From a virus, in the IMG/VR virus record IMGVR_UViG_3300045988_092680: a DNA stretch of 37,839 bases. One strand, given 5' to 3'. Under the pieces are notes generated by a model. It was not told the DNA's origin, made no database searches, and saw only the letters and a list, made by a program, of their open reading frames with translations. Shown piece by piece: positions 3,612 through 22,669 of the stretch (position 1 is the first letter of the stretch; each line of letters starts with the position of its first letter). A program made the position numbers and the translations under genes.

Positions 3612-5159
3612 ATGCAAGACGATAAACGCATACAAGAGCTGTACGAAAAAATAGAAGCTGATTTATTGCGTAATATCGCTAGTAGATTAGATATTGAAGA
3701 AATAGACGGCGGTTCTGTTGAGTGGTACACTAGAAAACTTGACGATTTGGGTATGTTATCGAATGAGAATATCAAAGTAATTGCTAAATATACTGGAAAA
3801 ACTACAAAAGAAATAAAACAGTTATTAAAGAAAAGCGGTTATGCTAATATAGAAGAATCAGCCTACAAAGAAGCATTTCAGAAAAAAGTTTTAGCTCAAA
3901 AGGCTGTTCCTTTAATGAAATCTGAATCATTAAAAGAAATATTAAATACTTCTGTATCTAATTCCATTGATTCGTTTAATCTGGTTAATACTACCGCTTT
4001 AGAAAGTGCTAACGAAGAATATCTAAAAATAGTTAATCAAGTATATTTAGAAGTGTCTCAGGGATTATATGATTATAGTAGTTCTGTAAGAAAGGCTGTT
4101 ACTAAACTAGCTGAAAAAGGAATTAAAGGTGCTAGCTATATGCGTACTGACGGAACGAAGATTATAAGAACTTTAGAATCGGCTGTACGTATGCAGGTAT
4201 TAACAGCTAATAATCAATGTATGACAAAAATGCAAGAACAAAGAGCTAAGGAATGGGGTTCTAATCTTGTAGAAGTATCTTCACATATGGGAGCTAGACC
4301 TAGCCACGCTGAATGGCAAGGAAAAATATATATGCTAGAGGGTTCTAGTGCTGAATACCCTAATTTTTATGAAGCTACTGGTTATGGTACTGTTACTGGA
4401 TTATGTGGCGTTAATTGCCGACATACATTCTACCCTTATTTAGAGGGCGTCAGTGAAAAAACATACAAACACTATAATCTTAATGAAAATAAAGAACAGT
4501 ACGAAAGAGAGCAAAAACAACGCCAGTTAGAAAGAAAAATACGTGTAGAAAAGCAAAAAATAATTGTAGCCGAAGAAACTGGAGATAAACTTATGCTTGA
4601 AAAAGCAAGTATTAAGTTAAAAGAACGAAGAAACGATTTAAAAGACTTTATAGAAAAGAATAATCTCACTCGTGATTCTTCAAGAGAGTTTAAATACGGA
4701 TTTAATCGTTCTGTATCACAGAAAGCTACCGTTATTAGCCAAAACGTTGAAAATAAAGCTAATATGGCGTATAATTTAGGTAGTACGGAGAATAATGTTA
4801 AAGCATACCTAAGAGACGCCCCTATTAAGTCAACACTTAGTACAGATTTTGATTTAGATAATTATAGAGAGTCTAAATGGGAAAAACACGATCCTAACAA
4901 TAAGAACTATGACGGTGTATCTAGTCAAGTAACTATTTCAAAAGAATTGACTAAAGAATTGATTAAAAAATATTCTGGTACAGGTGCTTTAGAAAGAAAT
5001 GCTAAAAGTGGCTTATGGCAAAATAAAGAACTTATTCATTCAGATACTGTTGTTGGTAAGGTGTTAGACACAAATAATAATTGGGTTGAAACAAAATCTT
5101 TCAAAATACATTATTCTAAACGAGGAGTACATATTGTACCTACACTTAGAGATAAATAA
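3612..5159 (+). CDS. MuF / SPP1 gp7-like head morphogenesis protein with coiled-coil linker and ~150-aa C-terminal extension
   Basis: MuF-type motifs SSHMGARPSHAEWQGKIY and CGVNCRHTFYPY; KQRQLERKIRVEKQK coiled coil; extra C-terminal domain ending KIHYSKRGVHIVPTLRDK. Confidence 0.8.
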   Translation: MQDDKRIQELYEKIEADLLRNIASRLDIEEIDGGSVEWYTRKLDDLGMLSNENIKVIAKYTGKTTKEIKQLLKKSGYANIEESAYKEAFQKKVLAQKAVPLMKSESLKEILNTSVSNSIDSFNLVNTTALESANEEYLKIVNQVYLEVSQGLYDYSSSVRKAVTKLAEKGIKGASYMRTDGTKIIRTLESAVRMQVLTANNQCMTKMQEQRAKEWGSNLVEVSSHMGARPSHAEWQGKIYMLEGSSAEYPNFYEATGYGTVTGLCGVNCRHTFYPYLEGVSEKTYKHYNLNENKEQYEREQKQRQLERKIRVEKQKIIVAEETGDKLMLEKASIKLKERRNDLKDFIEKNNLTRDSSREFKYGFNRSVSQKATVISQNVENKANMAYNLGSTENNVKAYLRDAPIKSTLSTDFDLDNYRESKWEKHDPNNKNYDGVSSQVTISKELTKELIKKYSGTGALERNAKSGLWQNKELIHSDTVVGKVLDTNNNWVETKSFKIHYSKRGVHIVPTLRDK

Positions 5160-18549: not shown

Positions 18550-20310
18550 ATGGCACAAATAATTAGAACTCGTAGAGATATAAAAACGAACTGGGAAACT
18601 GAAAACCCAGTTCTAGCTCTAGGAGAACAAGGCTACGAAACTGATACAGGAAAATTAAAATTTGGCGACGGTAATACTAGCTGGAATAACCTACCATATT
18701 TTAGAGGAGCTTTAACAGAAGAATTAGAAGAAAAATTAGATTCTGTACCAACTCCTAGTAATATAGTAGTAATAGAAAATATATCAAGCTTGTTTAAGTC
18801 TGTTTCATATAACAGTGCTAACGGAGTTTTGACTTTTACACAATATAATGATACAATAGTTACTGTCGATTTGCCACTAGAGTTAATAGTTAGTAGCGGA
18901 CATTATGATAGCGATACTAAGAGTATTATACTCGTTCTCGCTAATCAAGAAACTATCACTATTCCTGTTAGTGATCTAGTTAATGAGTATTATGCTGATA
19001 ACACTACGTTAGAATTAAAACAAGTCAACGGAAAGTTGACTTTTAATGTAAAAGACGGTGTTTTTGTAAAAGCTCAAACTGGTAAAGGATTATCGACTAA
19101 TGATTATTCAACTTTGGAAAAAAATAAGTTAGCTGGAATAGCATCAGGAGCACAAGTTAATAAGGTTGAAAAAATACTTATTAACGGTGTGGAACAATCT
19201 ATAACAGATAAAACAGTAAATCTCGAAGTGAAAACAACCTCAAATAAGATATACGGTATAAAAAGATCGTTATCTTCTAATACATCTTCAGCTTGGGAAA
19301 GAACAGACGATTCAGTTGGATTGGTAGCTAATGCAACTAAAGACGGTAGTTCTGTTGTTAATAATTTTGATAGTATCTACCCTTGGTCTGATATTATTAC
19401 ATACAATTATGATACTCAAGCTAAAGCAATAACCGCTTATTATGGAGAACCTACTTTTAAGTTTGACGGTTCTAATGGCGAAGTATTAACTAGAATACCA
19501 GAATTTTATTATAAGAGATATGTTTCTAACAACGTAGAATATATTCTCATTTCGAGAGAAAAACACGACGGATTCATTAAAAGCGAACAATTTAGTGTTG
19601 GACGTTATACTTATTCAGGTTCAGCCTCAAGAGTGTATAGCCGAAGTGGTTATGAGCCATTTAGAAATTATAATATAACCAATGCTAGAGCTTATGCTAG
19701 GGCTTTAGGAGACGGATTCGGACAACTAGATTGGCATTATTTAATTATTCAGATGTTATATTTGGTAGAGTATGCTAATTATAATTGTCAATCTATGTTA
19801 GGACAAGGTCGTGTTTCAAGTAGTACACCTAACAACAGTGGCGGTTGTGATACCCTAGGTATGAAATCTGGTTGCTTGGGTAATGACGGAACATATTCTG
19901 TAATATATAGAGGTATTGAGGATCCTTACGGAAATATTTGGCAATTTATAGACGGTATAAATGTAAAAGATCACGTTCCGTATGTATGTTATGATTCTAG
20001 TAAGTACGCTGTTGACACATTTGACGGAGCTTATCACGTATTAAATTTCACAATGCCGTCAGCTAATGGCTATGCTTCTAAATTGGGTTATGATTCAAAT
20101 AATCCCCTTATGTCTTTAACAACTGAAGCTTCTGGTAGTTCTACTACTAATATGTGTGATTATTACTATCAGAATGACGGGAATCGTATCGCTCTTGTCG
20201 GCGGTCGTTTTGATTATGGTAGTGCTGCTGGGTTGTGGTTTTGGACTTTTGACAATACTTCGTCTAATACTTATACTTCGTACGGTGCTCGACTTCTTAG
20301 AAACCAGTAA
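18550..20310 (+). CDS. Tail fibre / receptor-binding protein, DGR target (Mtd_N-like N-terminus, C-type-lectin/FGE-like variable tip)
   Basis: N-terminus RRDIKTNWETENPVLALGEQGYETDTGKLKFGDGNTSWNNLPYF; C-terminus ALVGGRFDYGSAAGLWFWTFDNTSSNTYTSYGARLLRNQ*. Confidence 0.85.
   Translation: MAQIIRTRRDIKTNWETENPVLALGEQGYETDTGKLKFGDGNTSWNNLPYFRGALTEELEEKLDSVPTPSNIVVIENISSLFKSVSYNSANGVLTFTQYNDTIVTVDLPLELIVSSGHYDSDTKSIILVLANQETITIPVSDLVNEYYADNTTLELKQVNGKLTFNVKDGVFVKAQTGKGLSTNDYSTLEKNKLAGIASGAQVNKVEKILINGVEQSITDKTVNLEVKTTSNKIYGIKRSLSSNTSSAWERTDDSVGLVANATKDGSSVVNNFDSIYPWSDIITYNYDTQAKAITAYYGEPTFKFDGSNGEVLTRIPEFYYKRYVSNNVEYILISREKHDGFIKSEQFSVGRYTYSGSASRVYSRSGYEPFRNYNITNARAYARALGDGFGQLDWHYLIIQMLYLVEYANYNCQSMLGQGRVSSSTPNNSGGCDTLGMKSGCLGNDGTYSVIYRGIEDPYGNIWQFIDGINVKDHVPYVCYDSSKYAVDTFDGAYHVLNFTMPSANGYASKLGYDSNNPLMSLTTEASGSSTTNMCDYYYQNDGNRIALVGGRFDYGSAAGLWFWTFDNTSSNTYTSYGARLLRNQ
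20191..20298 (+). repeat. DGR variable region (VR0), in frame at the 3' end of the fibre gene
   Basis: Bounded by GCTCTTGTCGGCGGT and GGTGCTCGACTTCTT, blocks shared with four downstream cassettes; only 2 AAY codons. Confidence 0.8.
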
Positions 20311-20373
20311 GTGGGGGTTTGGGGGCGACCAGCCTCCCATAATAAAACTTCTTTTTTACCGACGAAAGTCGGT
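20311..20373 (+). promoter_or_regulatory. G-rich element plus two hairpins downstream of VR0 (IMH/target-recognition-like, or the fibre-gene terminator)
   Basis: gtgggggtttgggggcgaccagcctccca (GC-rich stem 20320-20339) and accgac-GAAA-gtcggt (20358-20373). Confidence 0.4.
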
Positions 20374-20432
20374 CGAGCTAAATTTATTTTTTGGGATTTG
20401 ATGTGGCGAGTACCGTTCGACTTTTAGCTTTC

Positions 20433-20543
20433 GCTCTTGTCGGCGGTGGTTATACTACCGACGCTGTACGTTGCGGGTTGTGGTGTTGGACTTTTGACAA
20501 TACTTCGTCTAATACATATACTTCGTACGGTGCTCGACTTCTT
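20433..20543 (+). repeat. Cassette C1: orphan VR-like copy (111 nt, one extra codon; VR-type 3' end CTTCTT)
   Basis: 3' 69 nt differ from VR0 at only 2 positions; 2 AAY codons; no credible gene context. Confidence 0.75.
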
Positions 20544-20596
20544 ATTTTTTCGGGGACTTGGTGTGGTTTGCACTTTCCTTTTGTTTGTGTTTCTTT

Positions 20597-20704
20597 GCTC
20601 TTGTCGGCGGTGCTTGGTCTAATGGTACGGAAGCTGGGTTGTGGTATTGGAACGTGAATGAAGCTTCGTCTAATGCGTGGACGAATGTCGGTGCTCGACT
20701 ACTT
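20597..20704 (+). repeat. Cassette C2: TR-like copy (5 AAY codons; 3' end CTACTT)
   Basis: Same conserved 5', central and 3' blocks; encodes ALVGGAWSNGTEAGLWYWNVNEASSNAWTNVGARLL in a frame with no start context. Confidence 0.7.
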
Positions 20705-20766
20705 ATATCATTTTATAAATATAGGGATTTGATGTGTTTGAGTGCGTGATTTGTGGCGTTTTTATT

Positions 20767-20874
20767 GCTCTTGTCGGCGGTCGTTTTGATAATGGTAGTA
20801 ATGCTGGGTTGTGGTATTGGAATTACAACAATGATTCGTCGTTGGCTAACACCACTGTCGGTGCTCGACCTCTT
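20767..20874 (+). repeat. Cassette C3: best template-repeat candidate for the 5' two-thirds of VR0 (6 AAY codons; 3' end CCTCTT)
   Basis: Cassette positions 1-66 versus VR0: 8 mismatches, 7 at C3 adenines. Confidence 0.7.
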
Positions 20875-20922
20875 ATTTTGGGATTTGGTGTGTTTTGTAC
20901 CGGCGTTTTCAGTGTTCGGCAG

Positions 20923-21030
20923 GCTCTTGTCGGCGGTAATTGGGGCAATACTACTCAAGCTGGGTTGTGGTATTGGAACTTCAATTGGTCTGGGACTGAT
21001 TACAACACTAATGTCGGTGCTCGACTACTT
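20923..21030 (+). repeat. Cassette C4: TR by position (~120 nt upstream of the RT start; 6 AAY codons; 3' end CTACTT)
   Basis: Same conserved blocks; followed by a ~120-nt spacer with hairpin ttgcc-cctt-ggcaa (21062-21075), then the RT. Confidence 0.65.
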
Positions 21031-21153
21031 ATATTTATAAATTACTTACACATCATTTTCCTTGCCCCTTGGCAAAAATTAGTCGCTCTGGGTTGGCTTA
21101 GTAGGTTAATTCTCGAAAAGTCGGCAGGCAAATATAAGAATATGGAGCCAGAA

Positions 21154-22218
21154 ATGAAAAGAAAAGGAAATATTTATAATGAAATATTAGAACTCAACAA
21201 TATTGAATCAGCAATATTTAAAGCTTCTGTTGGTAAGACGCACCGTAAGAGTGTTGAAAAAATACTAGACGCCCCTACGTATTACGCTATGCAAGTGCAA
21301 AAAATGTTATCAGATAGAAGCTATATTCCTAGTCCGTATATTGAAATGAAAATAAGAGACGGAGCTAGCAAAAAAGAAAGAATTGTATTTAAACCTAGGT
21401 TTTACCCAGATCAAATAATACACTGGGCTTTAATGAATAAAGTAGAACCACTTTTTAAAAGAGGTATGTACGAATTTTGCTGTGCTTCTATTAAAGGGCG
21501 TGGAATACAACGAGGAATGAATTATGTTAAAAGAATCCTAGTTAATGATAGAAAACATACTAAATATTGTTTAAAATTAGATATTAAAAAGTTTTACCCC
21601 AGTATAGATAAAGAAATACTAAAAAAGAAGTTTAGAAAAATAATCAAAGATAAAGATACATTATATTTAATGGATCTAATAGTAGATAGTTCTACAGAGG
21701 GTGTTCCAATAGGTAATTTTACTTCACAATGGTTTGCTAATTACTATTTACAAGATTTGGATCACTATATAAAAGAAGAATTAAAGGTTAAATACTATAT
21801 AAGATATATGGACGATATGGTATTATTCTCTAATAATAAAAAAGAACTACGTAAGTGCAAATATGCTATTGACGAGTTCTTAACACGAGAACATTTAAGG
21901 ATTAAGGAAAATTGGCAATTATTTAAAACTGATAGCCGTCCTATTGACTTTCTTGGTTATCGCTTTTACAGAGGTTATACTACATTACGAAGAAGTAATT
22001 TTTTAAGAATCAAAAGAAGAATCAAGAAAATATCAAAGAAAGAAGAACTTAATTTTAAAGACGCTTGTGCGATAATGAGTTATAATGGTTGGATTATACA
22101 TTCTGATTCATATAACTACACTCAAAAATATTTAAAGCCTTATGTTGATTTTAAAAAGGTTAAGGAGGTAATTAAAAATGAAAACAGAAAGCACAATAAA
22201 ACCGGAAATAAAATTTAG
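21154..22218 (+). CDS. DGR-type reverse transcriptase
   Basis: MKRKGNIYNEI... start with GGAG 6 nt upstream; motifs KPRFYPDQIIHWAL, LKLDIKKFYPSI, VPIGNFTSQWFANYYL, YIRYMDDMVLF, IDFLGYRF. The ORF is open from 20734, but that upstream part is cassette DNA. Confidence 0.9.
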   Translation: MKRKGNIYNEILELNNIESAIFKASVGKTHRKSVEKILDAPTYYAMQVQKMLSDRSYIPSPYIEMKIRDGASKKERIVFKPRFYPDQIIHWALMNKVEPLFKRGMYEFCCASIKGRGIQRGMNYVKRILVNDRKHTKYCLKLDIKKFYPSIDKEILKKKFRKIIKDKDTLYLMDLIVDSSTEGVPIGNFTSQWFANYYLQDLDHYIKEELKVKYYIRYMDDMVLFSNNKKELRKCKYAIDEFLTREHLRIKENWQLFKTDSRPIDFLGYRFYRGYTTLRRSNFLRIKRRIKKISKKEELNFKDACAIMSYNGWIIHSDSYNYTQKYLKPYVDFKKVKEVIKNENRKHNKTGNKI

Positions 22219-22669
22219 TATAGAGAACATTAAAGACAACACTTGTGAGGTTGTCTTTTTTGATAATATTTCCGAGGAAACAAAGGAAGAACAAACTGTA
22301 TATGTATATTATACTTATAGAATGAAAACAGCTTATAGACCTAATTTAGATATTATTATAGAACAAAACTACAATAAATGGTTAGAAGCTGTAAAAAATT
22401 ATGATTATAATTTAAAAGCTGAAGAAATAAGAAATAAAAGAAATCAACTTTTAGCTGACAGTGATAAAAATATGGTATTAGATAGAATAAATTTTGAAAT
22501 ACCTAAAGAAATAACTTTGACTAATATAGTAATTGTTATAAAAGAACTGTTTAACACTATAAGTACAATAAAAAACGGAGCTTGGGCTGTTTATAGACAA
22601 GAACTTCGAGATATTACAAAACAAAATGGATTTCCTTATGAAGTGGAATTTCCAAAAAAACCTGAATAA
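22178..22669 (+). CDS. Tail fibre assembly / chaperone-like protein (Caudo_TAP-like C-terminus)
   Basis: RNKRNQLLADSDKNMVLDR...WAVYRQELRDITKQNGFPYEVEFPKKP; AAGGAGG SD; overlaps the RT 3' end by 41 nt. Confidence 0.6.
   Translation: MKTESTIKPEIKFSIENIKDNTCEVVFFDNISEETKEEQTVYVYYTYRMKTAYRPNLDIIIEQNYNKWLEAVKNYDYNLKAEEIRNKRNQLLADSDKNMVLDRINFEIPKEITLTNIVIVIKELFNTISTIKNGAWAVYRQELRDITKQNGFPYEVEFPKKPE

Follow-up and report, generated by a model that had tools for sequence, protein, structure and literature searches.

The DNA analysed here, the whole 37,839 nt of IMG/VR virus record IMGVR_UViG_3300045988_092680 (hereafter the window), is a 37.8-kb temperate siphovirus-like genome of 31 % G+C with a serine recombinase, and the element under study within it is a diversity-generating retroelement (DGR). 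Its parts follow one another in the order variable repeat (VR0, at the 3′ end of a tail-fibre gene), four non-coding cassettes (C1–C4), a structured spacer RNA and a reverse transcriptase (RT) of the DGR type, with 110 nt between C4 and the RT. A repeat search returned a single family of five direct copies of 113 nt, beginning at positions 20187, 20432, 20593, 20763 and 20919 (245, 161, 170 and 156 nt apart; repeat region 20187–21031), and there was no sixth copy anywhere else in the window. Small offsets aside, these are the five cassettes that an initial annotation, made from the sequence alone, had placed at 20191, 20433, 20597, 20767 and 20923, and the five-copy pattern is far beyond chance.

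When the copies were aligned with MAFFT, the blocks GCTCTTGTCGGCGGT, GGGTTGTGG and GGTGCTCGAC proved invariant in all five, as that annotation had described; common to all copies are GCTCTTGTCGGCGGT, a central GCTGGGTTGTGG and GGTGCTCGAC-NN-CTTA. The stretches between the blocks are 52–73 % identical among the five, with differences at non-adenine positions too, in agreement with the earlier view that C2, C3 and C4 are distinct templates. C1 is longer than the other copies by 3 nt, and translation of the cassettes reproduced the reported counts of Asn (AAY) codons, which are 2, 2, 5, 6 and 6 for VR0, C1, C2, C3 and C4, respectively. The array is strongly depleted in adenine (the window mean is 37.6 % A). 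Additionally, a 13-nt motif, GGGRYTTGRTGTG, stands 43–47 nt 5′ of each of C1–C4. This had previously been read as an iterated spacer motif with five occurrences, four of which we recovered at 20393, 20553, 20724 and 20880, 2 nt from where they had been put; the fifth, at 20311 (GGGGTTTGGGGGC), is instead part of a different, G-rich/hairpin element found only downstream of VRs. Conservation of the motif in each unit stands, whilst its identity is corrected, as set out below, to one side (the 5′ strand) of an RNA helix.

In the usual understanding of DGRs, a single invariant template feeds one or more VRs, and its non-adenine positions fix the scaffold and limit the sequence space. In the window, nt 1–55 of VR0 are identical to nt 1–55 of C3 save for four positions, each of them an adenine in C3, and nt 40–109 are identical to nt 43–112 of C1 save for two. 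Compared with C4, which occupies the canonical position of the template repeat (TR), VR0 is 56–63 % identical and the differences are not adenine-specific. As VR0 is a mosaic of C3 and C1 and matches C4 poorly, a one-template DGR cannot explain it.

Sister assemblies were found by exact-protein look-ups, using a neighbouring gene and the 354-aa form of the RT that public gene callers obtain from another start; two others, L081 and L161, came from the RT-guided search described below. The fibre-gene body of the sisters is 99.7–100 % and the RT region 98.8–100 % identical to the window, and in sisters with four cassettes each of C2–C4 matches its counterpart to within 2 nt. Seven assemblies were compared, six with the four-cassette layout plus L241, which has C1 and C2 only. 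Their VRs derive from C1 in L081 (five differences, four at A) and L161 (one difference), from C2 in L241 (11 of 11 differences at A), from C3 in L242 (8 of 8) and from C4 in L245 (9 of 9). Two-donor VRs, joining a 5′ part from C3 to a 3′ part from C1, are present in the window and L244 (five differences, four at A), and one joining C2 to C4 in the same manner is present in L249 (7 of 7 at A), the flanks of which are 100 % identical to those of the window. In total, 43 of 46 VR–donor differences among the sisters lie at donor adenines (A>G 25, A>C 10, A>T 8).

There are 789 distinct members in the 90 % cluster to which the target protein belongs, and 12 full-tip protein alleles could be read from it: three with a single donor, eight with two donors and one, from a more divergent phage, that was left unassigned. 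The mosaic alleles are C3|C1, C2|C4 (twice), C4|C3 (three times), C2|C1 and C1|C4, such that all four cassettes are used in either half; C2 is a donor in alleles P0002, P0004, P0006 and P0013. All of the junctions fall inside the conserved central block, as anticipated when the conserved blocks were proposed to act as shuffling junctions. Adenine-free codons of the cassettes correspond to fixed residues in these alleles, and AAY, ACT and CAA codons to varying ones. The exact mosaic protein of the window was found on three contigs of the collection.

As far as can be read from assembled genomes, these comparisons show that any cassette can be the source of the fibre-tip VR, by a transfer bearing the adenine-specific error signature of a DGR; they likewise show that VRs are often two-donor mosaics joined in the central block, GCTGGGTTGTGGTATTGG. 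Since any cassette can donate and two donors can be combined, diversity is the product of a choice of scaffold for each half and adenine mutagenesis. The multi-template DGR raised in the initial annotation is thereby supported and, in our reading, this DGR very probably has, in place of the single template, a tandem library of alternative ones, numbering four in the window and between one and ten in its relatives. Coordinates and the evidence for each feature are collected in Table 1.

Table 1. Features of the array-bearing DGR in the window (H1 and H2, long-range RNA helices described in the text; Sp, spacer)
Feature	Coordinates	Strand	Evidence
Target gene: 586-aa tail-fibre/tail protein, last ~36 codons forming the variable repeat	18550..20310	+	ORF, translation, Pfam Mtd_N, PHROG 5302
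VR0, variable repeat (recipient); mosaic, nt 1–~39 from C3 and remainder from C1	20191..20299	+	Repeat search, alignment; five differences from the mosaic donor, 4–5 at donor A
G-rich element GTGGGGGTTTGGGGGCGACCAGCCTCCC with GC-rich DNA hairpin; resembles an initiation-of-mutagenic-homing (IMH)/hairpin target mark; only 3′ of VR	20311..20339	+	DNA fold
Second hairpin, ACCGAC-GAAA-GTCGGT, then T-rich tract	20358..20373	+	Fold, stem covariation
H1 5′ strand of unit C1, GGGATTTGATGTGG	20393..20406	+	Repeat search, pairing
Cassette C1 (template); VR-type 3′ flank TTCTTA, adenine-poor	20433..20544	+	Donor in sisters
H1 5′ strand of unit C2, GGGACTTGGTGTGG	20553..20566	+	Repeat search, pairing
Cassette C2 (template)	20597..20705	+	Donor: VR of L241, 5′ half of L249
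H1 5′ strand of unit C3, GGGATTTGATGTGT	20724..20737	+	Repeat search, pairing
Cassette C3 (template)	20767..20875	+	Donor: VR of L242, VR0 5′ half
H1 5′ strand of unit C4, GGGATTTGGTGTGT	20880..20893	+	Repeat search, pairing
Cassette C4 (template; canonical RT-proximal position)	20923..21031	+	Donor: VR of L245, 3′ half of L249
H2 5′ strand of C4, CTTATATTT; CTTA(T) flank on every cassette	21028..21036	+	
Single H1 3′ strand, ACACATCATTTTCC; partner of all four upstream motifs	21048..21061	+	Covariation
Sp RNA scaffold, Rfam RF03021 RT-18; includes hairpin 21062–21075 and internal helices	21063..21138	+	Rfam, RNAalifold
Single H2 3′ strand, AAATATAAG, directly 5′ of RT start; probable priming-site pairing	21130..21138	+	Covarying examples; BPP-1 analogy
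DGR-type reverse transcriptase, 358 aa, IGNFTSQ and YMDD	21142..22218	+	Pfam RVT_1, PDB match
Tail-fibre assembly/chaperone gene; shares 41 nt with the RT 3′ end; none of the known DGR accessories	22178..22669	+	Pfam Phage_tail_APC; PHROG tail fiber assembly

In order to follow the array beyond the window we performed an RT protein-guided search that took in 80 loci each from IMG/VR, species-representative genomes and metagenomes. Loci with an RT at least 70 % identical to that of the window carry arrays of the same grammar, with up to eight detectable copies. Among 34 distinct complete arrays, 1, 2, 3, 4, 5, 6, 7, 8 and 10 non-VR cassettes were found in 2, 4, 3, 6, 1, 4, 9, 4 and 1 cases, respectively. 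More distant loci have exactly one VR and one TR in 97 of 112 cases, and the array is thus a derived trait of one sub-clade. Its members are gut-associated phages and prophages, with host metagenome-assembled genomes (MAGs) labelled Bacilli, Mollicutes or Clostridia, and more than 40 independent assemblies show this architecture again.

For 37 distinct arrays that include a VR, each VR was fitted to the best cassette, or to the best cassette pair with one breakpoint. By this procedure 249 of 339 VR–donor differences were located at donor adenines, rising to 199 of 221 where the fit had no more than 14 mismatches, whilst A makes up about 20 % of cassette bases. The donor slot could lie anywhere from first to last and was internal in most arrays; moreover, the donor differed within each of two pairs, L020 and L065, which have identical arrays, and L008 and L014, the arrays of which are near-identical (eight versus seven cassettes). 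Where VR and cassette disagree, an A in the VR hardly ever stands opposite a different base in the cassette, and this sets the direction of transfer as cassette to VR. A more distant relative, L067 (positions 4286–4890; RT 64 % identical), has three copies, with a VR almost identical to the TR and a middle copy that is adenine-poor, VR-like and devoid of the G-rich target element; it may represent an early or degenerate stage of array formation.

The cassettes are under evident constraint. Not one of 182 distinct non-VR cassettes has a stop codon in the VR frame (the corresponding counts for the other two frames are 79 and 177), all 182 have a length divisible by 3, and their adenine fraction at codon positions 1, 2 and 3 is 0.31, 0.29 and 0.055, respectively. 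Together with the conservation of the flanking blocks and the pairing motif, this demonstrates that the cassettes are maintained rather than decaying, and these constraints are design features of DGR templates in DNA that is never translated. Decaying remnants and a single donor had been named beforehand as the outcome that would speak against several templates; the opposite was found on both counts, with constrained cassettes and several donors.

Cassettes are themselves also altered. In L008, cassette 3 holds an adenine-mutagenized copy of the 3′ half of cassette 6, and cassette 6 a copy of the 5′ half of cassette 7. The VR-adjacent slot is polymorphic in the window's phage (window GAT>GCT), and it is overwritten in L242 and L248. 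In the former, slot 1 is a mosaic of mutagenized C4 and C2 segments with a C1 end. In the latter (618–2480), the VR and the G-rich/hairpin element are missing, and a 620-aa fibre ORF runs into a C4-derived, adenine-mutagenized cassette with the slot-1 flank; this contig may represent a genuine VR/slot-1 recombinant, or else a misassembly. Across 28 arrays the median number of adenines is 14 in slot 1, 17–18 in the other slots and 11.5 in VRs, and the VR-type flank TTCTTA follows 10 of 28 slot-1 cassettes, 6 of 111 middle cassettes and none of 28 last cassettes. The slot-1 cassette appears, from these patterns, to be an occasional recipient as well as a donor. The description of C1 as recipient-like in the initial annotation is accounted for in this way, slot 1 being occasionally overwritten and adenine-poor; it is nevertheless incomplete, as C1 is a donor in sister phages.

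The number of cassettes changes too. L241 and L243 retain only C1 and C2, the latter bearing the downstream flank of C4, which points to a deletion via C2–C4 recombination and to an array length that is polymorphic within the phage. The contigs of L246, L247 and L251 start inside the array, at C2, consistent with assembly breaks at the heterogeneous VR/C1 region. The right flanks of L241, L243, L245–L247 and L250 hold host genes that encode CotJB, a Mn-catalase-type CotJC and TsaE, and the presence of these genes beside the sister prophages suggests a spore-forming Firmicute-like host; the closest genome record, L081, is labelled a Candidatus Melainabacteria MAG, for which mis-binning is possible. 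With regard to annotation, the adenine-depleted array is stop-free in one frame, and gene callers stretch the RT ORF across C3 and C4 to 494 aa (from a GTG at 20734; 20734–22218, + strand). Chimeric RT–array products (P0010–P0012) cluster with the tail-fibre target in the public protein collection. Arrays of this kind break assemblies and mislead gene callers into such 494-aa 'RT' ORFs, and they are probably mis-scored by DGR finders built for one TR.

The spacer between the array and the RT scored 60.9 bits against Rfam family RF03021 (RT-18), for which the gathering score is 41.3, and it also matched RF03020 (RT-17), below the gathering score; these orphan 'RT-associated' RNAs are therefore the DGR spacer scaffold of the present clade. 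Covarying helices were found in the spacer by RNAalifold, and its hairpin and internal helices agree with RT-18. In single-template relatives the motif that recurs 5′ of each cassette here lies upstream of the TR, and is complementary to the segment just 5′ of the first spacer hairpin (ACACATCATTTTCC in the window). For this helix, H1, 11 of 14 pairs show pairing-preserving two-sided changes across 53 diverse loci (as in TGATATG/CATATCA, GGGCTACGGGGTGC/GCACCCCGTAATCC and GGCTCGACCCGTGCG/CGCACGGGTCGAGCC), with 84.9 % of cells paired. None of 500 column shuffles reached the observed value, and sliding the partner by 1–3 columns left 37–51 % paired. An H1 5′ strand is present in all 264 units of 46 arrays, 36–58 nt 5′ of the cassette, and 10–14 of its 14 positions can pair with the single 3′ strand (shuffled median 9). 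Across 112 distinct internal spacers this motif is near-invariant (1.3–2.0 bits), whilst the remainder is poorly conserved.

A second helix, H2, pairs the post-cassette flank CTTAT(ATTT) with AAATATAAG, directly 5′ of the RT start codon, and covarying versions of it exist (TTTTATTTTTGT/ACAAAAATAAGA, TTCTTAAA/TTTAAGAA and TCTTTCTAT/ATAGAAAGA). It was not predicted by RNAalifold, from an alignment with a ragged 3′ end. In the DGR of BPP-1, cDNA synthesis requires at least 20 nt upstream of the TR, almost all of Sp and TR–Sp pairs beside the priming adenosine, the pairing at the priming site being at A56 (PMC6182149). By analogy, H1 and H2 would be the natural counterparts of these requirements.

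The proteins and the target site are likewise those of a DGR. Residues 5–43 of the target match Pfam Mtd_N (E-value 2.7e-12), and the protein matches PHROG 5302 'tail protein' (E-value 1.9e-61). The IGNFTSQ of the RT conforms to [I/L/V]GxxxSQ, the motif that marks the DGR lineage. The best PDB match of the RT is 8ub7_A, a 328-aa reverse transcriptase (E-value 2.4e-36, residues 6–325); a group II intron RT matches far worse (E-value 8e-11), as do retron RTs. No NCBIfam model reached its cut-off for the RT, and the GenBank phage collection contained no close relative, only distant RT matches. As for the fold of the target tip, a PDB sequence search matched only the N-terminal Mtd_N-like segment, and AlphaFold, applied to the last 247 residues as a single sequence, gave a model too poor for use, with a mean predicted local distance difference test (pLDDT) score of 30.9. 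The ALVGG...GARLL stretch of the target may resemble the VR of Mtd, and a C-type lectin fold is a candidate for the tip.

Downstream of the VR, the G-rich element and hairpins (20311–20373) occur 3′ of the VR only; they are kept in all arrays and in distant relatives, and never follow a cassette, the 3′ flanks of cassettes and VR diverging beyond CTTA. A hairpin downstream of the VR is required as a target mark in BPP-1 (PMC3240598) and, by comparison, the post-VR G-rich element and hairpin would be a target mark of this kind. The stem of the second hairpin covaries among arrays (CCGAC/GTCGG, TCGAC/GTCGA, TCGCC/GGCGA and TCAAC/GTTGA); this hairpin is possibly a fibre-gene terminator that separates transcription of the fibre from that of the array, or else a GRNA-loop hairpin or part of the target mark. 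Within the 3′ half common to VR0 and C1, on the + strand at 20249–20277 and 20494–20522, there is a promoter of sigma-70 type and near-consensus sequence (TTGACA-17-TATACT, 11/12) that is directed towards the array. In the present allele it might serve as an array promoter, or it might be a chance product of mutagenesis. We also considered a promoter in every unit: a consensus scan gave only the copies in VR0 and C1, and the adenine-poor spacers have no clear −10 or −35. In all, the locus has an RT of the DGR lineage, adenine-specific directional transfer, a VR at the 3′ end of the target gene, a mark following the target VR and a structured spacer; where it departs from the canonical form, in which a single RT-adjacent TR serves the VR, is in having four templates.

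The repeat unit thus consists of an upstream pairing strand, GGGAYTTGRTGTGT, a ~103-nt in-frame stop-free cassette and the 3′ flank CTTAT, and the last unit is followed by only one spacer scaffold and one RT. From this arrangement we propose that the array would be transcribed together with the spacer, and that any unit, using the H1 and H2 strands that it carries, could dock on the lone spacer scaffold whilst the units downstream of it are looped out between the H2 5′ strand and the H1 3′ strand. The RT would then prime from the spacer and copy the docked cassette. We consider this docking model plausible, with a confidence that stops a shade below even. Replacement of the VR by the cDNA would make use of the 3′ block, GGTGCTCGAC..CTTA, and of the target mark that follows the VR. 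A 5′ junction at the 5′ block would cause the whole VR to be replaced, whilst one at the 18-nt central block would replace the 3′ half alone and give rise to a mosaic. In BPP-1, at least 8 bp of homology suffices for 5′ integration, and cryptic internal sites can be used (PMC3240598). Arguing from that system, we regard partial integration as the source of the mosaics with the scales about evenly poised, and the remainder of the probability goes to other routes, including assembly chimeras.

Foremost amongst these routes is template switching by the RT (copy choice) at the central block, in place of partial retrohoming into an older VR. It would fit the invariable position of the junctions in the central identical block, the probable presence of all cassettes on one RNA and the proportion of mosaics in the window's phage (8 of 12 alleles), which is high if each needed two separate events. 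Furthermore, in nine of ten mosaics compared between phages the 5′ part came from the more RT-proximal donor, which sequential events would not predict. Within the window's phage, however, donor orientation is split 5:3 and yields no firm rule. The partial 5′ resolution known from BPP-1 at short internal homologies (PMC3240598) explains mosaics without any new activity, and the half-replacements in slot 1 fit partial conversion too. As such, copy choice deserves weight as a minority candidate. A mosaic orientation rule, with models of backward template jumps and of relaxation to smaller RNA loops built on it, was tried and set aside as a weak trend, given the nine of ten between phages but 5:3 in the window's phage. 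Read-through into a multi-cassette cDNA with loop-out, or forward skipping, is likewise not favoured; this predicts mainly mosaics with a distal 5′ and a proximal 3′ part, which are the minority class.

Silent-cassette gene conversion is the best placed of the explanations that dispense with several templates, and we consider it improbable. Here RecA-type recombination at the blocks, or array rearrangement, would move cassettes, and the RT would mutagenize from the last position only. Shared blocks of 10–18 nt could support recombination, and the polymorphic array length (C1 and C2 with the C4 flank in L241 and L243) means that cassettes do recombine at the DNA level, to which the VR/slot-1 fusion of L248 may be added. 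Nevertheless, the differences between a VR and its internal donor are adenine-specific, indicating that the donor itself was reverse-transcribed. Sisters with an identical array order use different donors, which on this explanation would demand repeated rearrangement and exact restoration of the order, and the blocks are very short for RecA-mediated exchange.

We likewise consider it highly improbable that the array, or its mosaic VRs, are short-read chimeras assembled from repeats and mixed populations, even though the contigs of L246, L247 and L251 break inside the array and the mosaic VRs of L166 and L177 have 1-nt length anomalies. The same array with identical cassettes was obtained in at least six independent assemblies from different sources, one grammar holds across more than 40 arrays, and the shared blocks are below assembly k-mer length. 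In addition, chimerism cannot produce adenine-specific differences, and the exact mosaic protein of the window recurs on its three contigs. Hardest to credit, and already contradicted, is a canonical one-template DGR in which C4 alone is a functional TR and C1–C3 are decaying duplicates of the fibre 3′ end or dead TRs: C4 does have the position of the single TR of distant relatives, and C1 is adenine-poor and resembles a former VR, but VR0 does not come from C4, sister VRs come from C1, C2 and C3 with adenine-only changes, most arrays use internal donors, none of the 182 cassettes has an in-frame stop, indels are multiples of 3 and the pairing motif of every unit is conserved.

Several points weigh against a tandem template library. 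The evidence comes wholly from assembled, mostly metagenomic sequence, and from mixed populations an apparent mosaic VR might, in principle, arise as a chimera of the consensus. About 10 % of the differences in good fits lie off adenines, and five VRs (L013, L082, L090, L091 and L207) fit no cassette present well, which suggests that their donor was lost or has diverged. That the RT gains access to an internal cassette is something we infer, and the statistics for H2 are weak in an alignment-free complementarity test, both strands being AT-rich. Lastly, no Avd/HRDC accessory gene was detected in a Pfam scan of 27 of the ORFs of the window, six of which, near the DGR, were also compared with PHROGs, a search that remote homologues could escape. 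In canonical relatives of the clade the VR–TR interval is too short for a gene.

If a template library is accepted, its consequences are considerable, in that it lifts the limit of a single scaffold. Jumps between scaffolds and recombination of half-sites would be followed by adenine fine-tuning, a two-tier logic reminiscent of cassette antigenic variation followed by hypermutation, and the set of reachable receptor-binding variants would be greatly enlarged. Template choice by an RT–RNA complex also becomes testable, with up to ten templates, each with its own pairing strands, competing for one spacer. For engineering, the arrangement suggests a compact way of multiplexing DGR-directed evolution with several templates, one scaffold and one RT. 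A further step would be to view the array as a rewritable, heritable library, in which one scaffold picks among N templates by alternative long-range pairing, halves are exchanged independently and slot 1 stores past variants for reuse, providing a retroelement memory of receptor specificities. The overwriting of slot 1 suggests, speculatively, such an archive function, and we regard the proposal in its entirety as doubtful; if true, the halves could be combined into 16 scaffolds in the window and into 100 where an array has ten cassettes, even without adenine mutagenesis.

Amongst known systems, the closest is the BPP-1 DGR (mtd-avd-TR-brt). Shared with it are an RT homologous to 8ub7_A, adenine-specific copying of a non-coding template into the 3′ end of an Mtd_N tail-fibre gene, a GC-rich hairpin element downstream of the VR only and a structured spacer between template and RT, with template–spacer pairing and an upstream segment. 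Unlike BPP-1, the present element has four tandem templates (1–10 in relatives), each with its own upstream pairing strand, for one VR; two-donor mosaic VRs are frequent, no avd was found and one slot is also an occasional recipient. More than one TR per RT locus has been reported in the Zeta crAss-like phage Lera, with TR1–VR1, TR2–VR2 and a putative TR3–VR3 (PMC12386605), and in a Stenotrophomonas DGR, where two TRs accompany six VRs (PMC6642488). In those, however, each TR has its own VR or target and extra pairs are read as old or inactive; neither report describes a tandem library of donors that compete for a single VR, or the formation of mosaics. Large DGR surveys make no mention of template arrays (PMC5758913, PMC8144416). 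A full-text literature search, from the scope of which most subscription journals fall out, found no description of tandem alternative TRs or mosaic VRs, in keeping with the earlier impression that the architecture was undescribed. The Rfam RT-18/RT-17 RNAs differ from the scaffold seen here in that the Rfam model comprises an 84-nt core only, without H1 and H2 bracketing the template and without multiple H1 5′ strands.

Outside the DGRs, tail-fibre host-range switching in Mu (Gin), P1 (Cin) and the shufflons proceeds by DNA inversion, with site-specific recombinases, inverted repeats and no mutagenesis. These resemble the present element in storing alternative C-terminal fibre segments beside the gene and exchanging them to alter host range; here, by contrast, all repeats are direct and there is a signature of reverse transcription. 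In Neisseria pilE/pilS and Borrelia vlsE/vls, antigenic variation arises by gene conversion from silent cassettes. The likeness lies in promoterless, in-frame, stop-free partial cassettes beside one expression site, and in segmental transfer bounded by short conserved blocks that yields mosaic expressed alleles. What sets the present locus apart are the adenine-specific substitutions in copied segments and the RT with its RNA scaffold beside the array, and these mark the transfer as retro-homing, in which point mutagenesis is added to the choice of cassette, rather than as RecA-type conversion. Nor is the copying faithful and RT-independent, as it is in RecA-type cassette systems, since copies differ from their donors almost only at adenines. 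The element works as a DGR that also follows the logic of silent-cassette antigenic variation.

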